From Vicugna vicugna (taxonomy: Eukaryota): 64,000 nucleotides of DNA. Positions 285 through 63,000 of the stretch are shown one piece after another. The notes under the pieces are model-generated. The model was not told where the DNA came from, searched no databases, and saw nothing but the letters and a program-made list of their open reading frames with translations. Within the stretch, counting starts at the first letter, position 1, and the number at the start of each line of letters is the position of its first letter. Position numbers and translations under genes: made by a program. Location: positions 210,741-274,740 of the forward strand of contig MU058226.1 in the NCBI GenBank assembly GCA_013265495.1. The letters run 5' to 3'.

Positions 285-11044
<10,760 letters not shown>

Positions 11045-28520: not shown

Positions 28521-28675
28521 GGAAACTGAGGAAGAGGCTTAAAGACTTGGTGCTCTGATGCTGGAGGGCCAGGCAAGAATGGGGGTGCGAGGCCTGGAGC
28601 CTTGGCTTAGGAAAGCCAGAGACCTTTGTCTCTGACCGGTTTCCTTCCCAACCAGGGTTGCCCACCCCCGCCACA

Positions 28676-30055
28676 ATGGCCTCTGGGGTGGAAGTCCTGC
28701 GCTTCCAGCTGCCTGGCCACGAGGCCGCTACGCTGCGGAACATGAACCAGCTCCGCGCAGAGGAGCGGTTCTGCGACGTGACCATTGTGGCCGACAGCCT
28801 CAAGTTCCGCGGCCACAAGGTCATCCTGGCCGCCTGCTCGCCGTTCCTGCGGGACCAGTTCCTGCTGAACCCCAGCTCTGAGCTGCAGGTCTCCCTGATG
28901 CACAGTGCGCGCATAGTGGCTGACCTGCTTCTCTCTTGCTACACGGGAGCCCTGGAATTCGCTGTCAGAGACATCGTTAACTACCTGACGGCAGCCTCCT
29001 ACCTGCAGATGGAGCACGTGGTGGAGAAATGCCGGAACGCCCTCAGCCAGTTCATCGAGCCCAAAATAGGCCTCAAAGAGGATGGGGTCAGCGATGCCAG
29101 CCTTGTGAGCAGTGTCAGTGCCACCAAATCCCTCCTCCCTCCTGCCAGGACCCCAAAGCCAGCCCCCAAACCCCCACCTCCACCCCCTCTTCCCCCTCCA
29201 CTCCTGAGGCCTGTAAAGCTAGAGTTCCCGCTGGATGAGGACCTGGAGCTGAAGGCCGAGGAAGAGGATGAGGACGAGGACGAGGACGTGTCTGATATCT
29301 GCATCGTCAAGGTGGAATCAGCCCTGGAGGTGGCACACCGGCTCAAACCTCCCGGAGGCCTGGGAGGAGGTCTGGGCATCGGAGGCTCTGTGGGCAGCCA
29401 CCTTGGGGAGCTGGCCCAGAGCAGCGTGCCCCCCAGCACCGTGGCCCCACCACAGGGCGTGGTGAAAGCCTGCTACAGCCTGTCCGAGGACGCGGAAGGG
29501 GAGGGCCTGCTGTTGATCCCCGGAGGCCGGGCCAGTGTGGGGGCCACCTCAGGTCTAGTGGAAGCAGCAGCGGTGGCCATGGCTGCCCGGGGGGCGGGGG
29601 GCAGCCTGGGGGCAGGGGGCAGCCGGGGACCCCTGCCCGGAGGCTTTTCCAGTGGAAATCCCCTAAAGAACATCAAGTGCACCAAGTGCCCGGAAGTGTT
29701 CCAGGGCGTGGAGAAGCTGGTCTTCCATATGCGGGCACAGCACTTCATCTTCATGTGCCCGCGCTGCGGCAAGCAGTTCAACCACAGCAGCAACCTCAAC
29801 CGCCACATGAACGTGCACCGTGGCGTCAAGTCGCACTCGTGTGGCATCTGCGGCAAGTGCTTCACGCAGAAGTCCACGCTGCACGACCACCTAAACCTCC
29901 ACTCTGGAGCGAGGCCCTATCGCTGCTCCTACTGCGACGTGCGCTTCGCTCACAAGCCTGCCATTAGGCGGCACCTCAAGGAGCAGCACGGCAAGACCAC
30001 GGCCGAGAACGTGCTGGAGGCCAGTGTGGCTGAAATCAACGTCCTCATCCGCTAG
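28676..30055 (+). CDS. ZBTB12: Zinc finger and BTB domain-containing protein 12, single coding exon, 459 aa
   Basis: ATG at 28676 (gccacaATGg), [23 protein letters not shown] domain, poly-Pro and acidic linker, four C2H2 fingers, TAG at 30053-30055. Confidence 0.98.
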
Positions 30056-32259: not shown

Positions 32260-44669
<12,410 letters not shown>

Positions 44670-45463: not shown

Positions 45464-47856
45464 ATGGGGGGAAAACAGGACCAGGACGAGAACTACGGTA
45501 AGGCTGCAGGCAAGGCTGGGGTGGGGAGCCCATGACGGAGGCGACCCTGTGAGGGAGGGTAGGCCGTTCGGCGTATGGAGGCTGGGACGGACCACAGGGA
45601 GAGGAGCTGAGAGGAGTCGTGGTCCCTGAGGGGAGGGCGCAGGAAACAAGCTGATGGAAGGAGGTAGAGTCAGGGTCCTGGGAGGAGGATGGGGTTCAGG
45701 GGCTGAGGGCCATTTCTGGGGAGAATTTGGGAAGTAAAGCTGGGGTATCCATGAGGAGTCGGGGCTGGAGTCCTTGGGAGGAGTGGGTGGTGTTAGGCCT
45801 GGGCCCTGGGAAGCAGTCTGAACAGGAGGCAGAGTCAGGGAGAGTGGGGAAGGGGCTCGGGCTGGGAGTGTCACGTGCTGCGGAGCCTGGGACTGGGACG
45901 GGTGAGCTGGGATCCCTGAGAGGAGGAATTTCCGCCTGGACACTGAATCTCTGAGGGGAAAAGGTGCTGGGGTTCTGCCCGCTGGAGTCTGTGAGGAGTG
46001 GCAGGGGAGTGGGTTCTGCTCGGGGTCCCGATGAAGAGTCAGGGCTGCGGATCTTGATGGAAAGGTGACTGGTGACCTGCACCCAGGGTCTCCGTTAGGA
46101 GGGAGGCTATCTGAGAGTACACTGAGGAACAGGGGCAGCGGCCCTCTGGGGTTCCTGTGAAGGGCAAGGCCTGAGGAGAGGGGCAGGGAGCTTGTCTCCA
46201 GAATCTCTGTGAGGAACAGGAAGCTGAGAGTCTGTCCTGGGAGTCCCAAGGGCTAGGGGTGGGGGGCAAGGTGGGGGAGTCTGAAGGGAGAGGGGCCAGC
46301 CTCTGGGATCCCTGTGAGCAGTAAGGTCTGGGGCCCGCCTGCAGAGGTCCCCTGGGGTTTGAGGGATCTGAACTCCTGGTCTGGAAAGGAGGGAACCGAA
46401 GGGAGGGGCCTCCCAGAGGCGAAGCTTGGTCAGAAGGGAGTGAGGGGAGGGAGGAGGGAGGACTCCCAGGAGACTTCCTGGAGTGGTTTTGGGTCAATCA
46501 TTGACATCATGTCCAAGAATCATGGAGGAACAGAGTCCAGAGCACCTAGAAGAATGGACCGCACCCCTTCCCACACTCCTGCCCAGCCCTCTGTACTCCC
46601 TCCTCGGTGCCCACATGGGACCCTGGCTGCCTGGCCCCACCTCCTCCCTGTGTGTACTCAGGGAGGACCAGGAACAGGACGTGGCCACAATCTCAACAGC
46701 CGGGCTCAAGTGTCACTCTGACTGGTCTCCCAGGGACTGGCGGTAGCCTGGAGACTAAGGTCCCTTTGGGGCGGGGGGGTCTACAGGGGCCCCCTCCCTC
46801 CCCAGGCCCTGCAGGAGTTGATGCCTTTTGCTCCAGCTTCTTTCCCCACAGCCTGGGGCCAAAGGGTAGAGAGATGGGCTGAGGTAGATGTAGGGCGGGG
46901 CTGTGACCTCCCTGAGGGGCTCCAGATCTGTGCCCACCTTGGCCTGGGAAGGAGTATGGGGAGGGGAGAGGGACAAGGATGGGGGTGTGAGAGCAACTAA
47001 GACGGCTGAACACAGAGTCCCACATCCCAGCTGGAGGGAGACTCTGGAGAAAGGAGCCAGGGTTGGGGAAGTTGATGAAGGCAGTTTCCTGGCCCCTGGC
47101 CGAGGGCCTTGAGGTGTGAGCAGTAAATGACTGGAAAAGACTGCACTCTCCCCTCCCTCCAAGGCCGCCTAGTTGGAGTTCACTGTGGGTGAGCAGTGAA
47201 GCTGCTGACCAAGCCTTGATCCTACCTTTCCTGTTCTGTAATGTCCCTCCTGCCAGCCCTGCCCCTGTCCATCTCCCACCAAACTCCTAGGGCTGGGTAG
47301 GACCTGGTGCCGGGTAGAGCCTGCTGTGGGGAAGGATTTGGAGGGACTGGAAATGGGGGGAGAGACTCCTCTCATTGCCTCACTCTGCACACTCCTCCCC
47401 ATGCCTTTCAGGAAAACCAGCCAAATATGACCCCTCCTTTCGAGGTCCCATCAAGAACAGGTGAGTTCTGGGCACTGCGCTGGTTGGGGCAGCAGCATCT
47501 GGGGAGAGGGGCAGTGTCTCGTTTTTGCTTCATATTTACTGAAATATTGGTAAGAATCTACTTGTGAGGGAAAAGAAAATCTTTCCCCAGGACAGTGGTG
47601 GCCTTGAGGAGACTGTCATGTGTGGAGGGGACAAAATGGGGCTTCCGGGGTGTTGGTGATGTTCTATTTCTTGACCTGGGAGCTAGCTACACAGGCCTGT
47701 GCCCTTTGGGAAAGAAAATTCATCCAGTTGAGCATTTATGAATGGTACACTTTCTGGTGTTAAACTTCAGAAGACAGTTTACTTATCCAAAAAAAAAGGG
47801 TTTTCTTTAAAAAAGAAAGAAAGGAAAGAAAGAAAGAAAAGAAAGAAAAGAAAGGA

Positions 47857-47916
<60 letters not shown>

Positions 47917-50900
47917 AAAGAAAGAAACCTACCTATGCTTACTTTCCAGCGTCCCCCAACTCCCCAAACCGTGACACCTCCAGACCACGCCCCCTCCCAG
48001 CATCCCCTCTCCAAAGGTTTCCCCCATTTCTCTCCCAGGAGCTGCACAGATATCATCTGCTTTGTCCTCTTCTTTGTCTTCATTCTGGGTTACATCGCGG
48101 TGGGACTTGTGGGTGAGTTTCTGGCTATGCAGACCTGAGGCGGTGGGCTGGGGGACTTCATTGTCCCAGGGAGGGACTACACCCATGGCTGTTCCTTCCT
48201 AAATACCTGCCCCCTCCTGTGATTCATCTCTGTGTCTCTGTCTCCAGCCTGGGTGTATGGAGACCCCCAGCAAGTCCTCTACCCCAGGAACTCTACTGGG
48301 GCATACTGTGGGGTTGGGCAAAACAACTGAGTATGAAGGCAGGAAGCGGGGTGGGGGGGGGGCTGGAGGGAGGTGAGGGGGGGGATGGGCAGGGGACCAC
48401 CCACCTCTACTCGGGCTCCAGACCCTTCCCCTGTTGTTTCCATGCCCTACTCAGCCTCCCTGAATCTCACCACTCCAGGCCACATTGAATAGCCTCCACT
48501 GCTGGTTAGTGGCTTCTGAGTCCCCCCAGGTTGGGAGATAGTGTAGCATCAATGATGAAGGCATGGGTTTTGGACTGGCATTTGAATCCCCAACTGGGCT
48601 AAGTAAGTTCTGGTTTGTGACCTTGGGAAAGGTACTTAACCTCTCTGAACTTTGATTTCCTCGTCTAAAACACAGGGATGATTCCAGAAGTAATGCTGTC
48701 GCTCCTAGCATGCAGAAAATGTTCGATAAATAATAAAACCTCTACCACTTAGATGGCATTTACTGTGTTTCAGGCAGGCAATGTACTTTGCACACAGACT
48801 CATTTAAACCCTATGAGATGTAGGTACTAATATTTTACATATGATGGAACTGTGGTAGTGAGCGGTTTAGTGACTTGCTCAAGGTCATAAAGCTGGGTGA
48901 TGATTTAGCTCCAGAGTTCAAGCTCTTAACCATTTATTAGCAGTGGTGATGCTGAATTACTCTGGAAATCTTTCTGGTGTCTCCCATACCTCCTCCCTGG
49001 CTGGGCTGAGCATCCTGAGGCCAGGAAGTGGGTGGTGTGTGTCTAGGCCACACTGGGCCCATTGCATGCTTGAGATGCAGCCCTGGCAGTCCCTCTCCTT
49101 CCCCAAGGCCTGCCCAAGACCTGGTGTATACGCTTCCCTCTCTCTTGCAGAGATAAACCATATCTCCTGTACTTCAACATATTCAGCTGCGTCCTAACCA
49201 CCAACATCATCGCGGTCGCCAAGAATGGTCTGGAATGCCCCACACCCCAGGTCAGAGCCTGGGTCCTGCTTCTGCCCCCAGATCTCCCCCAGGGTCTGGA
49301 TACCAGCCCCTTAGCATGCTCTCTGCCCCCAGGTGTGTGTGTCCTCCTGTCCAGTGGTCCCATGGACCGTGGAGCCGGAGCAGCTCTCGCAGACGGTTGA
49401 GAAGGTCTTCTATGCTGCAAATAGGAGCTTTTGTCTGCCAGGGGTGTCTGGGGATATGGTGAGTGCTGCCCCCAAAATCATTGCTGTTGCCAAGGGGGGT
49501 CCACAATGAGAGGGGTGGAAGCGGGAATTGGGTAGATAATCATGGTGGTGGAGGGGGACTCATTCCTTCATCCTGCTGTGTCTGTGTGTCTGTCTCTCCT
49601 CTTCCCACCCCCCAGGAAGTGCTTGAAAGCCTGCAACTAGAGCTCTGCCCCAGTTTCCTCCTCCCTTCCACTCCAGGTGAGAAGTTGAATACCTTCCTTA
49701 AACATCAGCCAGTCTTGTATTTTCATTCCTCAAACGAGGAAAGCAGGCTCAGAGAAATCAAGTCACACAGCTTGTCTGTGACAAAATTGGAATGAGCACA
49801 AGGTCTTCATTTTTTCTCTGCTGCATGACCCTGTAATCAGATCATCAGTGCTGATCACGCACCTGCTGTGTGCCGGGCACTGGGGACAGGTGAAGGGAAG
49901 ATGAAAACTGCTCCCCGTCTGAACTGCATTCTAGGTGGTACGATCAGAGAGGTTCATGAAGAGATCGCATGAGATTGCCGTGAGAACCTACACTTGCCTT
50001 TGTGCATCAGCATAGGGAACAGACTGGAAGGATGTTCACCCAAATATGTTAAAGAGAGTATGGCCAGGCGGTGGGATCACAGTTGACTTTTTTATTTTCC
50101 CTCTATGCTCTTCTGTGCAATAGTAAATGTTATTTTTAATAGAAAAAAATTAACAATAGCATGAGAAAAGATATCCAGTTCTCAATACACATGCCATAGG
50201 AAGTGTCTCCAATGAGGTCAGATAGGCTCCAAAGGTCAGATAGATCTGGATTTCAGTTCAGCACTTTCCAGCTGTGTGGTCTCGGGGAAATGACAGCCTC
50301 TTTGAACCTTGTCTCCTCATCTTTAGAATGTAAATGCCAAAGCGAGCCTACCTGGTAAAGTTGCCTTGAGGGTGGTGATAAATGGCCCTGTAGGCATGTG
50401 ATAGGTGCCACAGGAGATAGGGGTGGGGTGAGAGGGCTTCCTGGAGGAGGTGAGGTGGAGATGGAACTGAACAGGGCATCACAGATGGGATTTCTGGAGG
50501 AGAGAGAGCAAAGGTACAGAGGGGAGGGGAAAGTGGCTGGGCTAGGACAACAGGGTCTTAAAGCCTGGCTTTAAGATGTGGGCACTCTCCAGGGCAGGGC
50601 GTCTGGAGGTGTCTGAGCTGCAGTGATTTAGAGCCCTGGAATTCTGAGGTCCAGGCCAGACCAGGTCATGGTCTCCCGGGCACTCTGGCAGAGGCTGGAT
50701 TGAAGGTTGGCAGGGTTGAGGGTGGAGGTGCTTTAAGAGGTAGGCCAGAGGGGAGGAGGGCAGGCAGTGGCAGAGAGGGGAGGAAGGAACATTAAGAGAC
50801 AGTGAAGGAAACACGGACTGGGTTCCTGGGACAGGAGCTCCCTTTTGGCTGCAGAATCAAGAGCAGCACTCCCAGGGCGCGGGGATATAACTCAGAGGTG

Positions 50901-53900
50901 GAGTATGTGCTTAGCATGCGCAAGGTCCTGGGTTCAATCCCCATTAAAAAAAGAAAAAAGAGCAGCCCTCTGAAGAGGGCACAACCCTTCTCAACTCTCA
51001 ACTCGGCTAGAGTGGGGGCCAGAGACTTTCAAGGTAAAGCTCTGGGCCCTCCCGTCCAGTCACCTGGTTCTCTCCCTCCAGCTCTAGGGCGTTGTTTCCC
51101 ATGGTCCAATAGCACTGTGCCCGAGCTCACAGGGATCTCCAACACATCCATCTCCCAGGGCATCAGGTGGGCACCCCCCTGCCCCCACCTCCCTGTCCCG
51201 CACCCCATCCCACCCACAGCCCCATCTGACTTTGTCTCCCCAACAGTGGTCTTCTTGATGGCCTCAATGGCCGTGACATCAGTGTCAAGATCTTTGAAGA
51301 CTTTGCCCAATCCTGGTATTGGATTCTTGTGTGAGTCACCAGATACCCCTGTTCTCTCCTTCCCTTCCCTGAAACACAGGCTTTGGATCAGGCAGGAGGA
51401 GCTGGAGCTCAGAATGGATCCCAAGCTTGACAGGATTTATAAGGGGCGGTGGGGTGGAGGGGGTCTGATCTGGGGACACTGGGGACCTCTGAAAGGGGAA
51501 AGGTTTGGGGGATGTGGGGTGACCCTCACCTGCCTCACCCTGCCCGCAGTGCCCTAGGCGTGGCTCTGGTCCTGAGCCTGCTGTTTATCCTGCTTCTGCG
51601 CCTGGTGGCCGGGCCCCTGGTGTTTGTGCTGATCGTAGGGGTGCTGGGCGTGCTGGCCTATGGTATATACCACTGCTGGAAAGAATACAGCGTGCTGCGG
51701 GACCAGGGTGCCTCCATCTCCCAGCTGGGCATCACCACCAACCTCAGCGCCTACGGCAAAGTTCAGGAGACCTGGCTGGCAGCCTGTGAGTGTCCTGCCC
51801 ACCGATGAACCACCTGCCACTCAAGGGTGGCCCTGGGCCATGCCTGGCCCTGGTCCTGACCCAGGCCCCTCTGCCCCGTCTACCCTAGTGATCGTGCTGG
51901 CCGTGCTGGAAGGCATTCTGCTGCTGATGCTCATCTTCCTGCGGCAGCGGATTCGTATCGCCATCTCCCTCCTGGAGGAGGCTAGCAAGTCAGGGCCTGT
52001 CTGGAAAGAAGGGGCAGAGGGCAGGGATGTGGGCCCAGGATGGGAATGCTGACTTTGTGGCAGGGAGCACTGGAGGAGAAGGGCAGCACAGCATGGTGGT
52101 TAACACTGCTGTGACTTAGCTTTTCTGTGCCTCAGTTTGCCCATCTGTAAAATGGGTGTAACAGCAGTTCCTACCCCTAGGGCTGCTGTCATAAGGATTA
52201 AATTAGTGTCTCGTCAAGTGTCTAGAACATGAAACAGGCCCTTACTCTCCCTGAAGCTGCCTTGGCAGCTTCTTGTGACTCTAGTTTCCTCTATAGTTCC
52301 CTTGAGCCTGATTTATTCAATTCAGTTTGTTCAGAGAACACCTACGGTGTGCTCAGCCTGGGGGGATGGATCAGGCCCTGGAGAGGACAGAGGTGTGGCC
52401 ATACCAGGGTTGCCCAGTGAGAGGATGGGTGGGGATTCGGGGGCTAGCTCCTTTGGTGGACCGCTGTCATCTCCCTGCAGGGCTGTAGGACAGATGATGT
52501 CTACCATGTTCTACCCGCTGGTCACCTTTGTCCTCCTGCTCATCTGCATTGCCTACTGGGCCATGACTGCTCTGTATCCTTTGCCCACATGGCCGGGCCC
52601 TCCTGGAGTCCTTGGGAGTAGGGGACAGGGCAGTACCTTTTTGTGCAGTGCCTCAGTACCATTGGAGGGAGGCATCCCTTCCTCCAGGCAGCCCTGCGTA
52701 GAAAGAAAATTTCAGCCACTGTGCAGTAAAGAGCCTGCACAGGAAGGGGTTGCTGAGGAGGGGACCTTGGAGACCCCCATATGACCATGCTTTCCTTGAC
52801 TCCTCTCTGGGTACCTGGCCACATCGGGACAACCTCAGTATGTGTTCTGGGCACCCAACGCCACCTTGCCGGGCTGTGAGAAAGCGCTGATGAATACATC
52901 ATGTGATCCCTTGGTGAGGATTTGGGGTGGATGTGGAGGGGCACCAGTAGGGCTAAGGGGACCTCAGAGGCCAACTGCTCCAAGTCCCTCATTGTGCCAG
53001 GGAGACTGAGGACCAGAGAGGGCAAGGGGCTAAGTAACTGTCACACAGCAGGCCCCTAGCAGAACCAGAGAGGGAAGCAGTCCCCAGAATCCAGATCTCC
53101 CGCTGAGCTACCCATTGTGCTGGAAGAGGAGGCAGGCTGTGCCTGAAAGCAGGGCCAGGCCCCCGGGCAGATGGGTACCAGAAGTTCTCCATCCCTCCCC
53201 AGGACATTCCTCTGCCTAGAGGACAATTAACCACTTCACCCTCTCAGTCTCAGTCCACCCACCTGTAAAATGAAGATAAATCTTAATATCTGTGCCTCAG
53301 CGGGGCTGAGAAGATTAAAGAACATTGTGCACATGAAAGTGCTTAGTACAATGCCTGGCATCTGATGAGAGCCGATAACTCTAGATGGGTTTTATTTCGG
53401 GCTTTTTTGGGCAGTCTTCCTCCCTCAGAACACTGTGTCCTAGGCAATAGGCAGGTGGGGCTCCCTGGGGGGCCTGGGAAAGTAGCTGCTTCCCCAAACT
53501 CTCCCCTGTGAGGTTCCCAGAGATCGGGGCCAGACTTCTAGGTATTTAACGGTCAAAGCTTTCATACTGCCACTGCATCAGAGCTGGGATCAAGGGCTGT
53601 GCCCACAGGCATTAGCCCCACTGAAGAAAGAGGGGGAAGTCCTTTACATCTAAGGAGGACTCTCTATGTGCTGGGAGCTGGGTATACAAAGCCCCAAATG
53701 TGTTCGCTTTCGACTTACTTAGATTCCATGTAGCAGTGGGGACTGACTGAAACCCACAATTACCTACACAGTAGAAACTGGTTTACTTTCTTATAAAATT
53801 TCAAACGAACATTGGGTTTCAGCAATTATCAAGATTTTTGTCACATCATTTGCAAATCCTTTCTCCCGTTCAGTAGCTTGTCTTTTCGATGGTGATGTTT

Positions 53901-56845
53901 TCCCTGGCTGGGTACAAGCTTTTAAGTTTAATTAGGTCCCATTTGTTTATTTTGGCTTTTATTTCCTTTGCTTTAGGAGCCAGGTTGTGGTTTTCACTTT
54001 TTATGAGGGAAATTTTCAGATGCACACAAACGTAGAGAATCCCTGTACCCAGATTTCATAACCTTCAGCTCTCTGTTCTTGCTTCATGTAACTCCCTACC
54101 CATCCACCCACTGCCCAGCCTGCAATTTTTTTTTCTGGAGTTTCTAATGGCAAATTCTGGACATTGTGCCATTTCTCCTATCAATATATCAGGATGGATC
54201 TCAACATATTTAAAAAGCATAACCACTACACCATTATCACACCCAACAAAATGAACAATTCCTTAGTATCACCTGATACCCAGTCTGTTCCATTTTGCTG
54301 GAGTGTTTTGGTTGAAGTTGCAGAGGCTGCTCTGGGAGGGGATTGCTGCCTGAGTGGGAGGGAGAGCTCCTGATCACACTGCCTTCATACGGTTAAGGCT
54401 CAGCCCACATGCCCTGGGAGCTCTGGTGCCCATCCGCAGGCTGGAGACTGAAGGAAACTAATTATACTCACACAGTAGGCAAGCTGAACCCTGTTTGAAC
54501 CTGGAGATGGATCTCCTGGAAGGAATGAGCTTCTCCAGCTCTGGAAAGGCTGTTACTTCCCTCTGCTCTGGGAGAGGCAGGAGCTGGCTGGAAACGAGCC
54601 TCCTCTGCCCATCTCCCCAGGCCCAGACCCCGAACACCTCGTGCCCAGGGCTGATGTGCGTCTTCCAGGGCTACTTGTCCAAAGGCCTGGTACAACGTTC
54701 TCTCTTCAACTTGCAAATCTATGGGGTCCTGGGGCTCTTCTGGACCATCAACTGGGTATTGGCCTTCGGCCAGTGTGTCCTGGCTGGGGCCTTTGCCTCC
54801 TTCTACTGGGCCTTCCACAAGCCTCGGGACATCCCTACCTTTCCCCTGAGTGCTGCCTTCATCCGCACACTCCGGTAAGCCTGGGGCAGGGGCTGGCTAT
54901 TGTGGCCCTGGGAGTCCCAGGGGTCCTGAGGCTGCCTCTAACTCCCTAAGTCCTGTGCAGTTACCACACCGGGTCACTAGCCTTCGGAGCCCTCATCCTG
55001 ACCCTGGTGCAGATAGCCCGAGTCATCCTGGAGTACATTGACCACAAACTGAGAGGTGAGCTGAGACTGGGGGCTGGGCAGGGCTAAGCTAGGCAGCTGG
55101 ATCCTTGGGGAGGGGCTGTCAGGGGCCAGTGACCAAACATGAGCCCTCCTTACCCCCAGGAGCCCAGAACCCCATGGCCCGCTGTATCTTGTGCTGCTTC
55201 AAGTGCTGCCTCTGGTGTTTGGAAAAGTTTATCAAGTTCCTGAACCGCAATGCATACATCATGGTGAGCCCCACTCCCTGAGCAACGCCTTGCTCTGGGG
55301 GTCCTTGACCCAGGCTTCCCACCCTGGCCCAGGTTAACTCACCACAGGTTAACTCTGAACTTCCCACCTCACCCAGATTGCCATCTATGGGAAGAATTTC
55401 TGTGTCTCAGCCAAAAACGCCTTCATGCTGCTCATGCGGAACATTATCAGGTCAGGCTATCACTGCCCACCCGCCACCACCACCTCCGTGATCTCCCACT
55501 CAAGGCCAGCTTCATGGGCATGCTATGCTCAGAAGGTGCATTGAGCTGGGTTTAATCTCTGCTGCCTTCATCTTGAAATGTGAACAATTTTCATTTTGCA
55601 TCTGTCATGGCAACTTATATAGCCAGTTCTGTTCCCAGCCCTGCGAAGCCTCTCACCCCCAACCTACCCAAACTCCTTGTACAGGGTGGTCGTCTTGGAC
55701 AAAGTCACAGACCTGCTGCTGTTCTTTGGGAAGCTACTCGTGGTTGGAGGTGTAGGTAATGACCAGGGCAGGGAGTTACGCGGACAGAGGACAGGGATGC
55801 TGGGCAGCTTAACAGATGACCTCAGAGGAGTGACACTGACCTCTCTCCCACAGGGGTCCTGTCCTTCTTTTTTTTCACTGGTCGCATCCAGGGACTGGGT
55901 AAAGACTTTGAGAATCCCCACCTCAACTATTACTGGCTGCCTATCATGGTGAGTGACACCCCTCAGCCACTCTGCCTCACCCTCCAACTCTCCAGAGGAA
56001 CCCTAACCGGCTTTGTGTCTTCCAGACCTCCATCATGGGGGCCTATGTCATCGCCAGCGGCTTCTTCAGCGTTTTTGGCATGTGTGTGGATACTCTCTTC
56101 CTCTGTTTCTGTGAGTGATATCCCTCCTCCACCTCTCCCCAACTTAAAGGTACCAGATTGTTTAGGCTTTTTTTGGAGATTTGGTGCTTCTAGAAACAGC
56201 TACTTTGTGAGTTACAGGAGCCAGAGCCAGAGGGAGCCTCTTCTTACATCCTCAGGCCAGGTTTTTGGGAGGAAAGAAGGGAGGGAGCTCCCAGGCGCCT
56301 GGGTTCTCCCTAGAAGGAGCATTGCAGGGAAGAGGCCCCCCCACCCCGTATCTTCCCCTCCCCTTGAAAATCTAGGGAAGCCACAGGAGTCTTCCCAGCA
56401 GGTGGCTGTAGTGAGTGCGGATTTTCCTACCCTACTGTATGCATTCATTCAGGGTTTCGTATGTAGCACGCTCTGTGCTAAGCAATCGACATGTATTTTT
56501 ACCGTTAATCACTGTATGAAATATAGTACTATTGACCCCACATTTCAGATGAGGAAACTGATATTACATAACCCACCCAGTAGGTTACAAAAAATGCTAG
56601 AAAAAAACAGCCGGTGGTGGCACAGCCTGGAAACCATGCAGCTGTCTCTTAGTCCCTGATTTTCCCGGGGAGTGGGTTTGGCCCCCCAAATGTCCGCTCT
56701 AACGGGTCTATGTCACGGCTCAGTGGAAGACCTGGAGCGGAACGATGGCTCCATGGACCGCCCCTACTACATGTCCAAGAGCCTTCTGAAGATTCTGGGC
56801 AAGAAGAACGCGGCGCCCCAGGGAGACAAGAAGAGGAAGAAATGA
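45464..56845 (+). CDS. SLC44A4: Choline transporter-like protein 4 / thiamine pyrophosphate transporter, 21 exons, 707 aa predicted; two non-canonical splice sites
   Basis: Exons: 45464-45497, 47412-47460, 48039-48112, 48248-48326, 49151-49250, 49333-49458, 49616-49676, 51082-51166, 51247-51330, 51550-51785, 51889-51988, 52481-52573, 52811-52913, 54621-54874, 54961-55055, 55160-55263, 55377-55450, 55685-55755, 55854-55948, 56026-56110, 56724-56845. Sum 2124 nt with no internal stops. Motifs [73 protein letters not shown]. Exon 4 donor is CT; intron 12 is U12-type GT-GG. Confidence 0.96.
47811..47926 (+). repeat. (GAAA)n microsatellite following an L1-like fragment
   Basis: Long aaga/aaag run in SLC44A4 intron 2. 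Confidence 0.95.
50875..50957 (+). mobile_element. tRNA-derived SINE (vic-1-like)
   Basis: ggggatataactcagaggtggag...ggttcaatcccca plus poly-A, flanked by aagagcagc direct repeats. Confidence 0.8.
52574..52810 (+). other. U12-type (minor spliceosome) intron of SLC44A4
   Basis: 5' site GTATCCTTT at 52574; branch site TTTCCTTGAC at 52791-52800; 3' end ...CTCTGG at 52810. Confidence 0.9.
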
Positions 56846-61699: not shown

Positions 61700-63000
61700 C
61701 TATCCAGAATTTGTGGTCAACTGGGTAATACTGGAAATTTTTTCTTTTATAGACATTTTCAAAAACACAAAAGTAAAAAAAAATAGCTTCATGAACCCCA
61801 TGTACCACAGCATCCAGTTTCAGCAATTATCAAGATGTTACCACGTTGTGGGGAGGGTATAGCTCAGTGTTAGAGTGTGTGCTTAGCATGCGCAAGGTCC
61901 TAAATTCAATTCCCAGCACCTCCATTAAAAGTAAATTAATAAACCTAATTACCTCCCCCTTCAAAAAAAAAAAAACTTAAAAAAAGTTACCATGTTGCTT
62001 CTTACCCTTTTTTCTGCTTCCTTTGCTGAAGTATTTTAAACCAAATCCCAGACCTCATGACATTCACCCCTACATTCTTAAGTATGCATCTCTTTCTTTA
62101 GAACGGAATATATTATTACATAATCATAATGCCATTGCACACCCGAAACATTAACAGTAACTGTGGTATAATCTAAAACCCAGTTGATGTTCAGATTTCA
62201 TCAAATGTCTCAAATATGTCTTATTTACAGTTGATTTGTTCAAATCAGGATGCCAAGAAAATCAACACATTGCATCTTGATGTCTTTTTCTTCTTTAATA
62301 TGGAGGTACTGGGGATTGAACCCAGGACCTCATGCATGCGCTCTACCATTGAGCTATATACCTCCCCTACCCCAATATCTCTTTAGTCTTTGTAATCTAC
62401 AGTAGTTCCACCTCCTCTCTTTTCTTTCTCTCTCTTCTAATACCATCTACACAAAAATAATTCATTTGTCCTGTAGAATGTTCCTCCCCCTGGATTCGTG
62501 TTTCTTCCTCAGAGCCTCATTTAACTTCTTCCTCCATCCCTTGTATTTCCAGTTATCAAAAAAGATCTAATTAGGTTCAGAGTCCATCTGAGGGGGGACA
62601 AGATTCCTTTGCAGGGGCTTTGTGCTTCCTTTGGTGCCCCCTAAGGAAGCAAGCACTGTCTGCTTGCCCCTCTCAGAGTAAAGCTGAGATTGAGCCATGG
62701 GTTCATATGGCCATAGCCTGACTCACCCCCTCTGTAAGATTTCCCCATCAACCTTTCAACTGAAAGTTTCGTTGATGGATGAGTTTTGCCTGAATCAGTT
62801 ATTTCATGAGGGGTTGGGAAATGCTGGTTTTTAAATTCTGTTATTTTGTCCTCATGTATTAGGTAGAATTCTCCAGATTGAAAAAAAAAAAAAGCTGTCA
62901 CTCATCCAGGCTGTCGGGTTACCATGAAGTGTGGTTTGCATGGGAAAGGCAGGATAAATGCTTAATTTCTCCCCTTTAATTGCCAGTTCGCAGAGTAAAC
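61700..63000. mobile_element. Old L1M fragment containing two vic-1-like SINEs (61850-61985 plus; about 62284-62368 minus)
   Basis: gaagtattttaaaccaaatcccagacctcatgacatt; SINE at 61850 flanked by GTTACCA(C/T)GTTG repeats. Confidence 0.65.

Follow-up and report, generated by a model that had tools for sequence, protein, structure and literature searches.

A CT splice donor at intron 4 of SLC44A4 in a vicuña assembly: consensus error or null allele

Does the C that opens intron 4 of SLC44A4, a vitamin B1/choline transporter gene, in a Vicugna vicugna assembly belong to the animal, or only to the assembled consensus? SLC44A4 is the colonic thiamine pyrophosphate (TPP) transporter (PMC8800108; papers cited by accession are represented here by extracts of their text). 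The original prediction offered a choice between a null allele and a base-call error; both remain supported, but an adjacent tract of 80% G, which it missed, favours the error. We analysed a 64-kb stretch of contig MU058226.1, referred to throughout as the window, and conclude that the assembly does carry a C at 48327, though the animal itself probably does not.

One altered donor in an intact SLC44A4

The SLC44A4 (CTL4) coding span covers 45464..56845 of the window on the forward strand, the strand of all features described for this gene, and comprises 21 exons encoding 707 amino acids when exons 4 and 5 are joined. Exon 3 (48039..48112; residues 28–53) carries the first hydrophobic helix (residues 33–51, hydropathy peak 2.9). 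Exon 4 (48248..48326; 79 nt, residues 53–79) ends in phase 2, and exon 5 (49151..49250) retains an intact acceptor (ttgcag/AGAT). The frame stays open for 707 codons only with the phase 2 join of exon 4 to exon 5 at 49151, and the 21-exon model bears out the exon end at 48326 and the phase that had been proposed. The joined product is identical at 707/707 residues to alpaca RefSeq XP_006215408.2, which supports the gene name given in the original prediction and marks the genome as that of a South American camelid; it differs at one residue from the older alpaca RefSeq version and at 8–9 from Camelus RefSeq records (8 from the shared Camelus record). An exon 10 query likewise found alpaca SLC44A4 as its best match, and PDB searches returned CTL1 as the sole, weak relative. 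Among 107 homologues, counted after removal of those shorter than 550 aa, exon 4 has a mean identity to alpaca of 0.897.

The locus is an orthologue by protein identity and by its single copy between EHMT2, threaded upstream, and an open six-exon NEU1-like gene downstream, which we take to be NEU1. The exon 4 region has a single match within the assembly, and a second copy or haplotig with a normal intron 4 donor was not found. Elsewhere in the window, open frames at 285–11031 (reverse strand) resemble what are presumably complement C2 exons, and an intact single-exon frame at 28559–30055 (forward strand) is presumably ZBTB12-like. Two short tRNA-like SINE copies, recognized by eye at about 50875–50960 and 61848–61925, are presumably of the camelid type. 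A long purine-rich (AAAG)n microsatellite occupies about 47810–47930 in SLC44A4 intron 2 and is likely a polymorphic MHC class III marker. Alpaca isoform X2 lacks exon 6 (49333–49458; 126 nt), which is also the sole exon absent or diverged in 30 of the 107 homologous records; by sequence comparison it is a putative conserved in-frame alternative exon.

The intron 4 donor reads CTGAGT (48327..48332), with C at +1 where G is expected, as originally described for the assembly sequence. The boundary is CAA AAC AA/CTGAGTATGA at 48321–48336 and, over 48316–48339, GGG CAA AAC AA/CTGAGTATGAAGG. Nineteen of the 20 SLC44A4 donors begin with GT and intron 4 alone with CT; together with EHMT2 (27/27 GT) and NEU1 (5/5), 51 of 52 donors checked are GT, intron 4 of SLC44A4 being the sole departure. 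On a small home-made matrix derived from the 45 canonical donors of the window, and with +1 and +2 ignored, the site reaches 5.7 bits and so outscores 26 of those 45; it matches the U1 consensus at 8 of 11 positions. The CT site is an ancestral donor with one base changed, not a misplaced boundary. A U12-type intron as an excuse for the non-GT donor was rejected, since the intron starts CTGAGTAT, is U2-like and has no RTATCCTT motif. Sixteen shifted donor/acceptor combinations were also drawn up as alternative in-frame models; the in-frame donors scored were weak, and each shifted pair deletes or replaces conserved residues.

Intron 12 (52574..52810) serves as an internal control on gene predictors. 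It is of the U12 type and runs from GT to GG, with GTATCCTTT as its U12 donor and TTCCTTGAC as its U12 branch site. SLC44A4 is already counted among the minor-intron genes of human and mouse, with donor and branch motifs as here (PMC6717393 supplement). U12 introns with GT-GG ends form a rare class documented in tables of PMC1557818, where SLC44A4 is not named. The gene is absent from three supplementary files of PMC4176328, and in the papers checked, including PMC6717393, PMC1557818 and those three files, we found no statement on the GG end of its minor intron. A GG at this acceptor is implied in wild camel (EPY85398.1) and wombat (record P0108) by W and G codons in mis-modelled proteins; shared with both, it would be an old, conserved non-canonical acceptor.

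Predicted consequences of a genuine C

Read-through of intron 4 gives AAC TGA, an in-frame stop at codon 80 (48328..48330) that leaves 79 aa, in agreement with the original prediction, and any downstream cryptic donor meets the same codon: all 16 listed GT/GC candidates downstream of the intron 4 donor have their first stop at codon 80. The GTATGA at +4 (48331..48336) that had been put forward as a cryptic donor does keep this stop, but it is very weak (−7.5 vs −0.7 for the lowest real donor); the best cryptic donor is GAG/GTGAGG at +46 (48373..48378; score 7.2), and it does not remove the stop either. Skipping exon 4 shifts the frame to a stop at codon 68, and skipping exons 3 and 4 stays in frame (656 aa) while losing residues 28–79, including the first hydrophobic helix; both outcomes had been foreseen. 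None of the 107 homologues lacks exactly exon 4 or exactly exons 3 and 4. Upstream in-frame donors are weak (GC at 48269, 1.9; GC at 48317, −4.3), so that no strong in-frame rescue site was found on either side: the downstream sites keep the stop and the upstream ones score poorly.

Stops far upstream of many exon junctions are expected to trigger nonsense-mediated decay. A real C at 48327 would most likely be a null allele through this route, because none of the cryptic donors downstream escapes the codon 80 stop. In a reported ranking of donor dinucleotides, CT is the weakest (GC > TT > AT > GA > GG > CT; PMC6280755, extract); as a caution, in an extract on 168 rare canonical splice variants about a quarter were without sign of loss of function (PMC11144818).

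Where the C may come from

The donor lies 26 bases before a G-rich tract with a G10 run (48353..48384), the window's only place with at least 80% G or C in 30 bases; no other tract in the 64 kb has at least 24 G or C in 30. The 50-mer at this tract contains 38 G and is the most skewed of the window. Ranked by local G/C skew, the SLC44A4 intron 4 donor comes first of 47 (24/30 bases; next 21), the five NEU1 donors falling at 14–18, and 0.2% of the window is within 50 nt of such an 80% G/C tract. The motif "G|C >= 80%" is described, in the text available from PMC4053816, as a short-read bias motif that makes up 0.03% of the human genome and is anecdotally tied to contig breaks; its HiSeq relative coverage was about 0.49–0.96 across lanes, on a technology that may not be that of this assembly (PMC4053816). 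The window's other G10 run, at 43077–43086, closely follows the donor of an EHMT2 intron that starts at 43067, and that donor is a normal GT; a G10 run alone does not go with a wrong donor.

We favour a single-base consensus error in an animal with a normal GTGAGT donor and an intact SLC44A4, at a probability of about 0.55. The lesion stands alone in a gene without signs of decay, the models of its relatives are intact and the site lies in a bias context; the 80%-G tract adjoining the donor favours error. Read support beside the tract 26 bases downstream may have been reduced or strand-biased, and poor support at 48327 could have let one wrong base enter the consensus. The link to the tract is post hoc, and the coverage drop reported for the motif is only moderate. 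Genuine mutation, too, may be more frequent at G-rich tracts. Against an error, the remaining window is without visible error: EHMT2 has no mismatch to the alpaca protein outside one poly-Glu length difference and 27/27 GT-AG introns (counted after a 48-nt gap was dropped, which is that length difference and no intron), and the NEU1-like six-exon gene is open with 5/5 GT-AG introns. Also against it, an extract of PMC6386725 gives 96% of 415 inactivating mutations in assemblies as real and homozygous, in genes already judged lost. In a toy odds table with assumed rates, the error probability ranged from 0.09 to 0.99.

Of 24 sequencing runs listed, 20 contained part of the stretch, putative RNA runs among them, with a best word share of 0.98. 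These shares are not placeable on 48327 and carry no weight here: one variant costs about 3.3 of 183 words (share 0.982), and a contig break or a difference in G-run length costs the same. A metagenome pattern scan beside the donor gave 0 matches and is uninformative on C versus G.

The EHMT2 poly-Glu tract (36861–36996, forward strand) itself exceeds that of alpaca RefSeq isoform X4 (record P0133; 8 Glu) by 16 residues, and a bat EHMT2 record has a long tract like that of the window. The difference probably reflects a repeat that was collapsed, or a gap in modelling, in the alpaca record, or else alleles of different repeat length.

A young loss-of-function allele, rare or polymorphic, probably heterozygous and kept by chance in the haploid consensus, is a credible alternative, although we would wager against it. 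On this account the donor fails without its +1 G, and read-through, the +46 donor or exon 4 skipping leads to a stop at codon 80 or 68, with no usable in-frame rescue: the upstream GC sites score 1.9 and −4.3, and 0/107 homologues lack the exons concerned. The surrounding sequence is clean (SLC44A4 707/707, EHMT2 and NEU1), and the region is single-copy in the assembly. Some null alleles at splice sites are present in any outbred genome. For human, an extract of PMC2882926 reports 212 validated SNPs that fall on the dinucleotides of splice sites. Loss also looks survivable, Slc44a4 knockout mice with raised colitis susceptibility being described in the available part of a review (PMC12014454); such a null could therefore segregate. 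Against this allele stand its position beside the one 80%-G tract of the window and the fact that no second carrier was seen, none of the 24 listed runs containing all sampled words (best 0.98, not placeable on the site). Among the papers listed, with most subscription papers outside the scope of the search, none was seen to report a camelid SLC44A4 variant.

A C that has become common or fixed in a single South American camelid population, and yields either SLC44A4-null animals or a working constitutive CT-AG intron, appears unlikely. All six camelid cluster records carry the exon 4–5 junction residues NK/DKP. Dromedary KAB1261453.1 and wild camel EPY85398.1 both join exons 4 and 5 even though each model fails at intron 12, the former by running past its donor and the latter by translating intronic sequence. 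Predictors that fail at intron 12 would hardly handle a CT donor, and on these two models Camelus very likely has a normal intron 4 donor. Alpaca RefSeq cannot by itself establish a GT donor, since the non-canonical intron 12 is correctly modelled in RefSeq too; the two alpaca versions, which differ at residue 625, both join exons 4 and 5, and neither is named low quality. Camelus, alpaca RefSeq and buffalo each have a full-length record of 707 aa, that of buffalo in a cluster of 77, and the full-length sloth record has 705 aa. Once 20 of the 107 homologues, which had no anchor, were dropped, alpaca and buffalo were both 85.7% identical to the primate cluster representative, right whale 86.7% and sloth 87.4%.

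Camelid-wide or foregut-fermenter loss of SLC44A4 is rejected by the full-length records in camels, alpaca, buffalo and sloth, and the link to foregut fermentation drawn in the original prediction is not supported, the camelid protein having diverged no further than that of buffalo. Its statement that the gene is not an old pseudogene holds, 0/707 residues differing from alpaca RefSeq. For a unitary pseudogene we found one lesion, no private amino-acid change, and exons 4 and 5 joined in 6/6 camelid records. A loss fixed in a species or population of South American camelid, as a first step of pseudogenisation, is improbable: the lesion itself is all that speaks for it, the alpaca RefSeq protein being no proof of GT, and against it stand the missing second lesion, the unchanged protein, the full-length genes kept in Camelus and other foregut fermenters, and the exon 4–5 join in both alpaca RefSeq versions. 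Slimmest of all is the chance that a real and common C leaves a CT donor that is still usefully spliced through its good U1 match (8/11) and downstream G-runs acting as enhancers, for although CT donors could be activated in a reporter (PMC6280755, extract) and 17.9% of the 168 rare canonical splice variants gave wild-type-only splicing (PMC11144818, extract), CT is the lowest-ranked dinucleotide in the former study, where splicing switched completely to a weak canonical competitor once that was helped, and a good GT competitor lies at +46 here.

Significance and relation to known systems

The lesion is at most an ordinary null allele unless it proves common in population data. As an error, it has value only as a caution: SLC44A4 would be scored as broken here by automated screens for gene loss. 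As a rare allele, it would be an ordinary null in a gene that mice can live without, with some veterinary relevance to gut inflammation or thiamine status. A common or fixed C would matter more widely, either as a naturally occurring knockout of the colonic TPP transporter or as a rare CT donor that works, and natural null animals would offer a living test of whether the uptake of microbial thiamine pyrophosphate matters in a foregut fermenter.

The gene itself agrees with known SLC44A4/CTL4 (PF04515) in its product, identical to alpaca XP_006215408.2 at 707/707 residues, in the gene order ZBTB12-EHMT2-SLC44A4-NEU1 and in its minor intron, present as in human and mouse; it differs in the CT at the intron 4 donor of this assembly. 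Both candidate explanations are of well-known kinds: a real C would be a canonical +1G>C donor variant, a false one an isolated consensus error. Like the canonical +1G>C loss-of-function variants, the site has C for G at +1 in an otherwise consensus U2 donor next to a conserved exon, and a premature stop is predicted; unlike them, it is known from one assembly's sequence alone. With the functional CT 5' splice sites described in the extract of PMC6280755 it shares the CT dinucleotide and a good remaining U1 match, but those sites are weak, enhancer-dependent and mostly secondary, whereas this one would have to be the constitutive donor. It resembles assembly errors that mimic gene inactivation, as treated in the available text of PMC6386725, in being isolated within an undecayed gene and in the bias context of PMC4053816; it departs from that set in that most of the lesions there were real, though in genes already lost.
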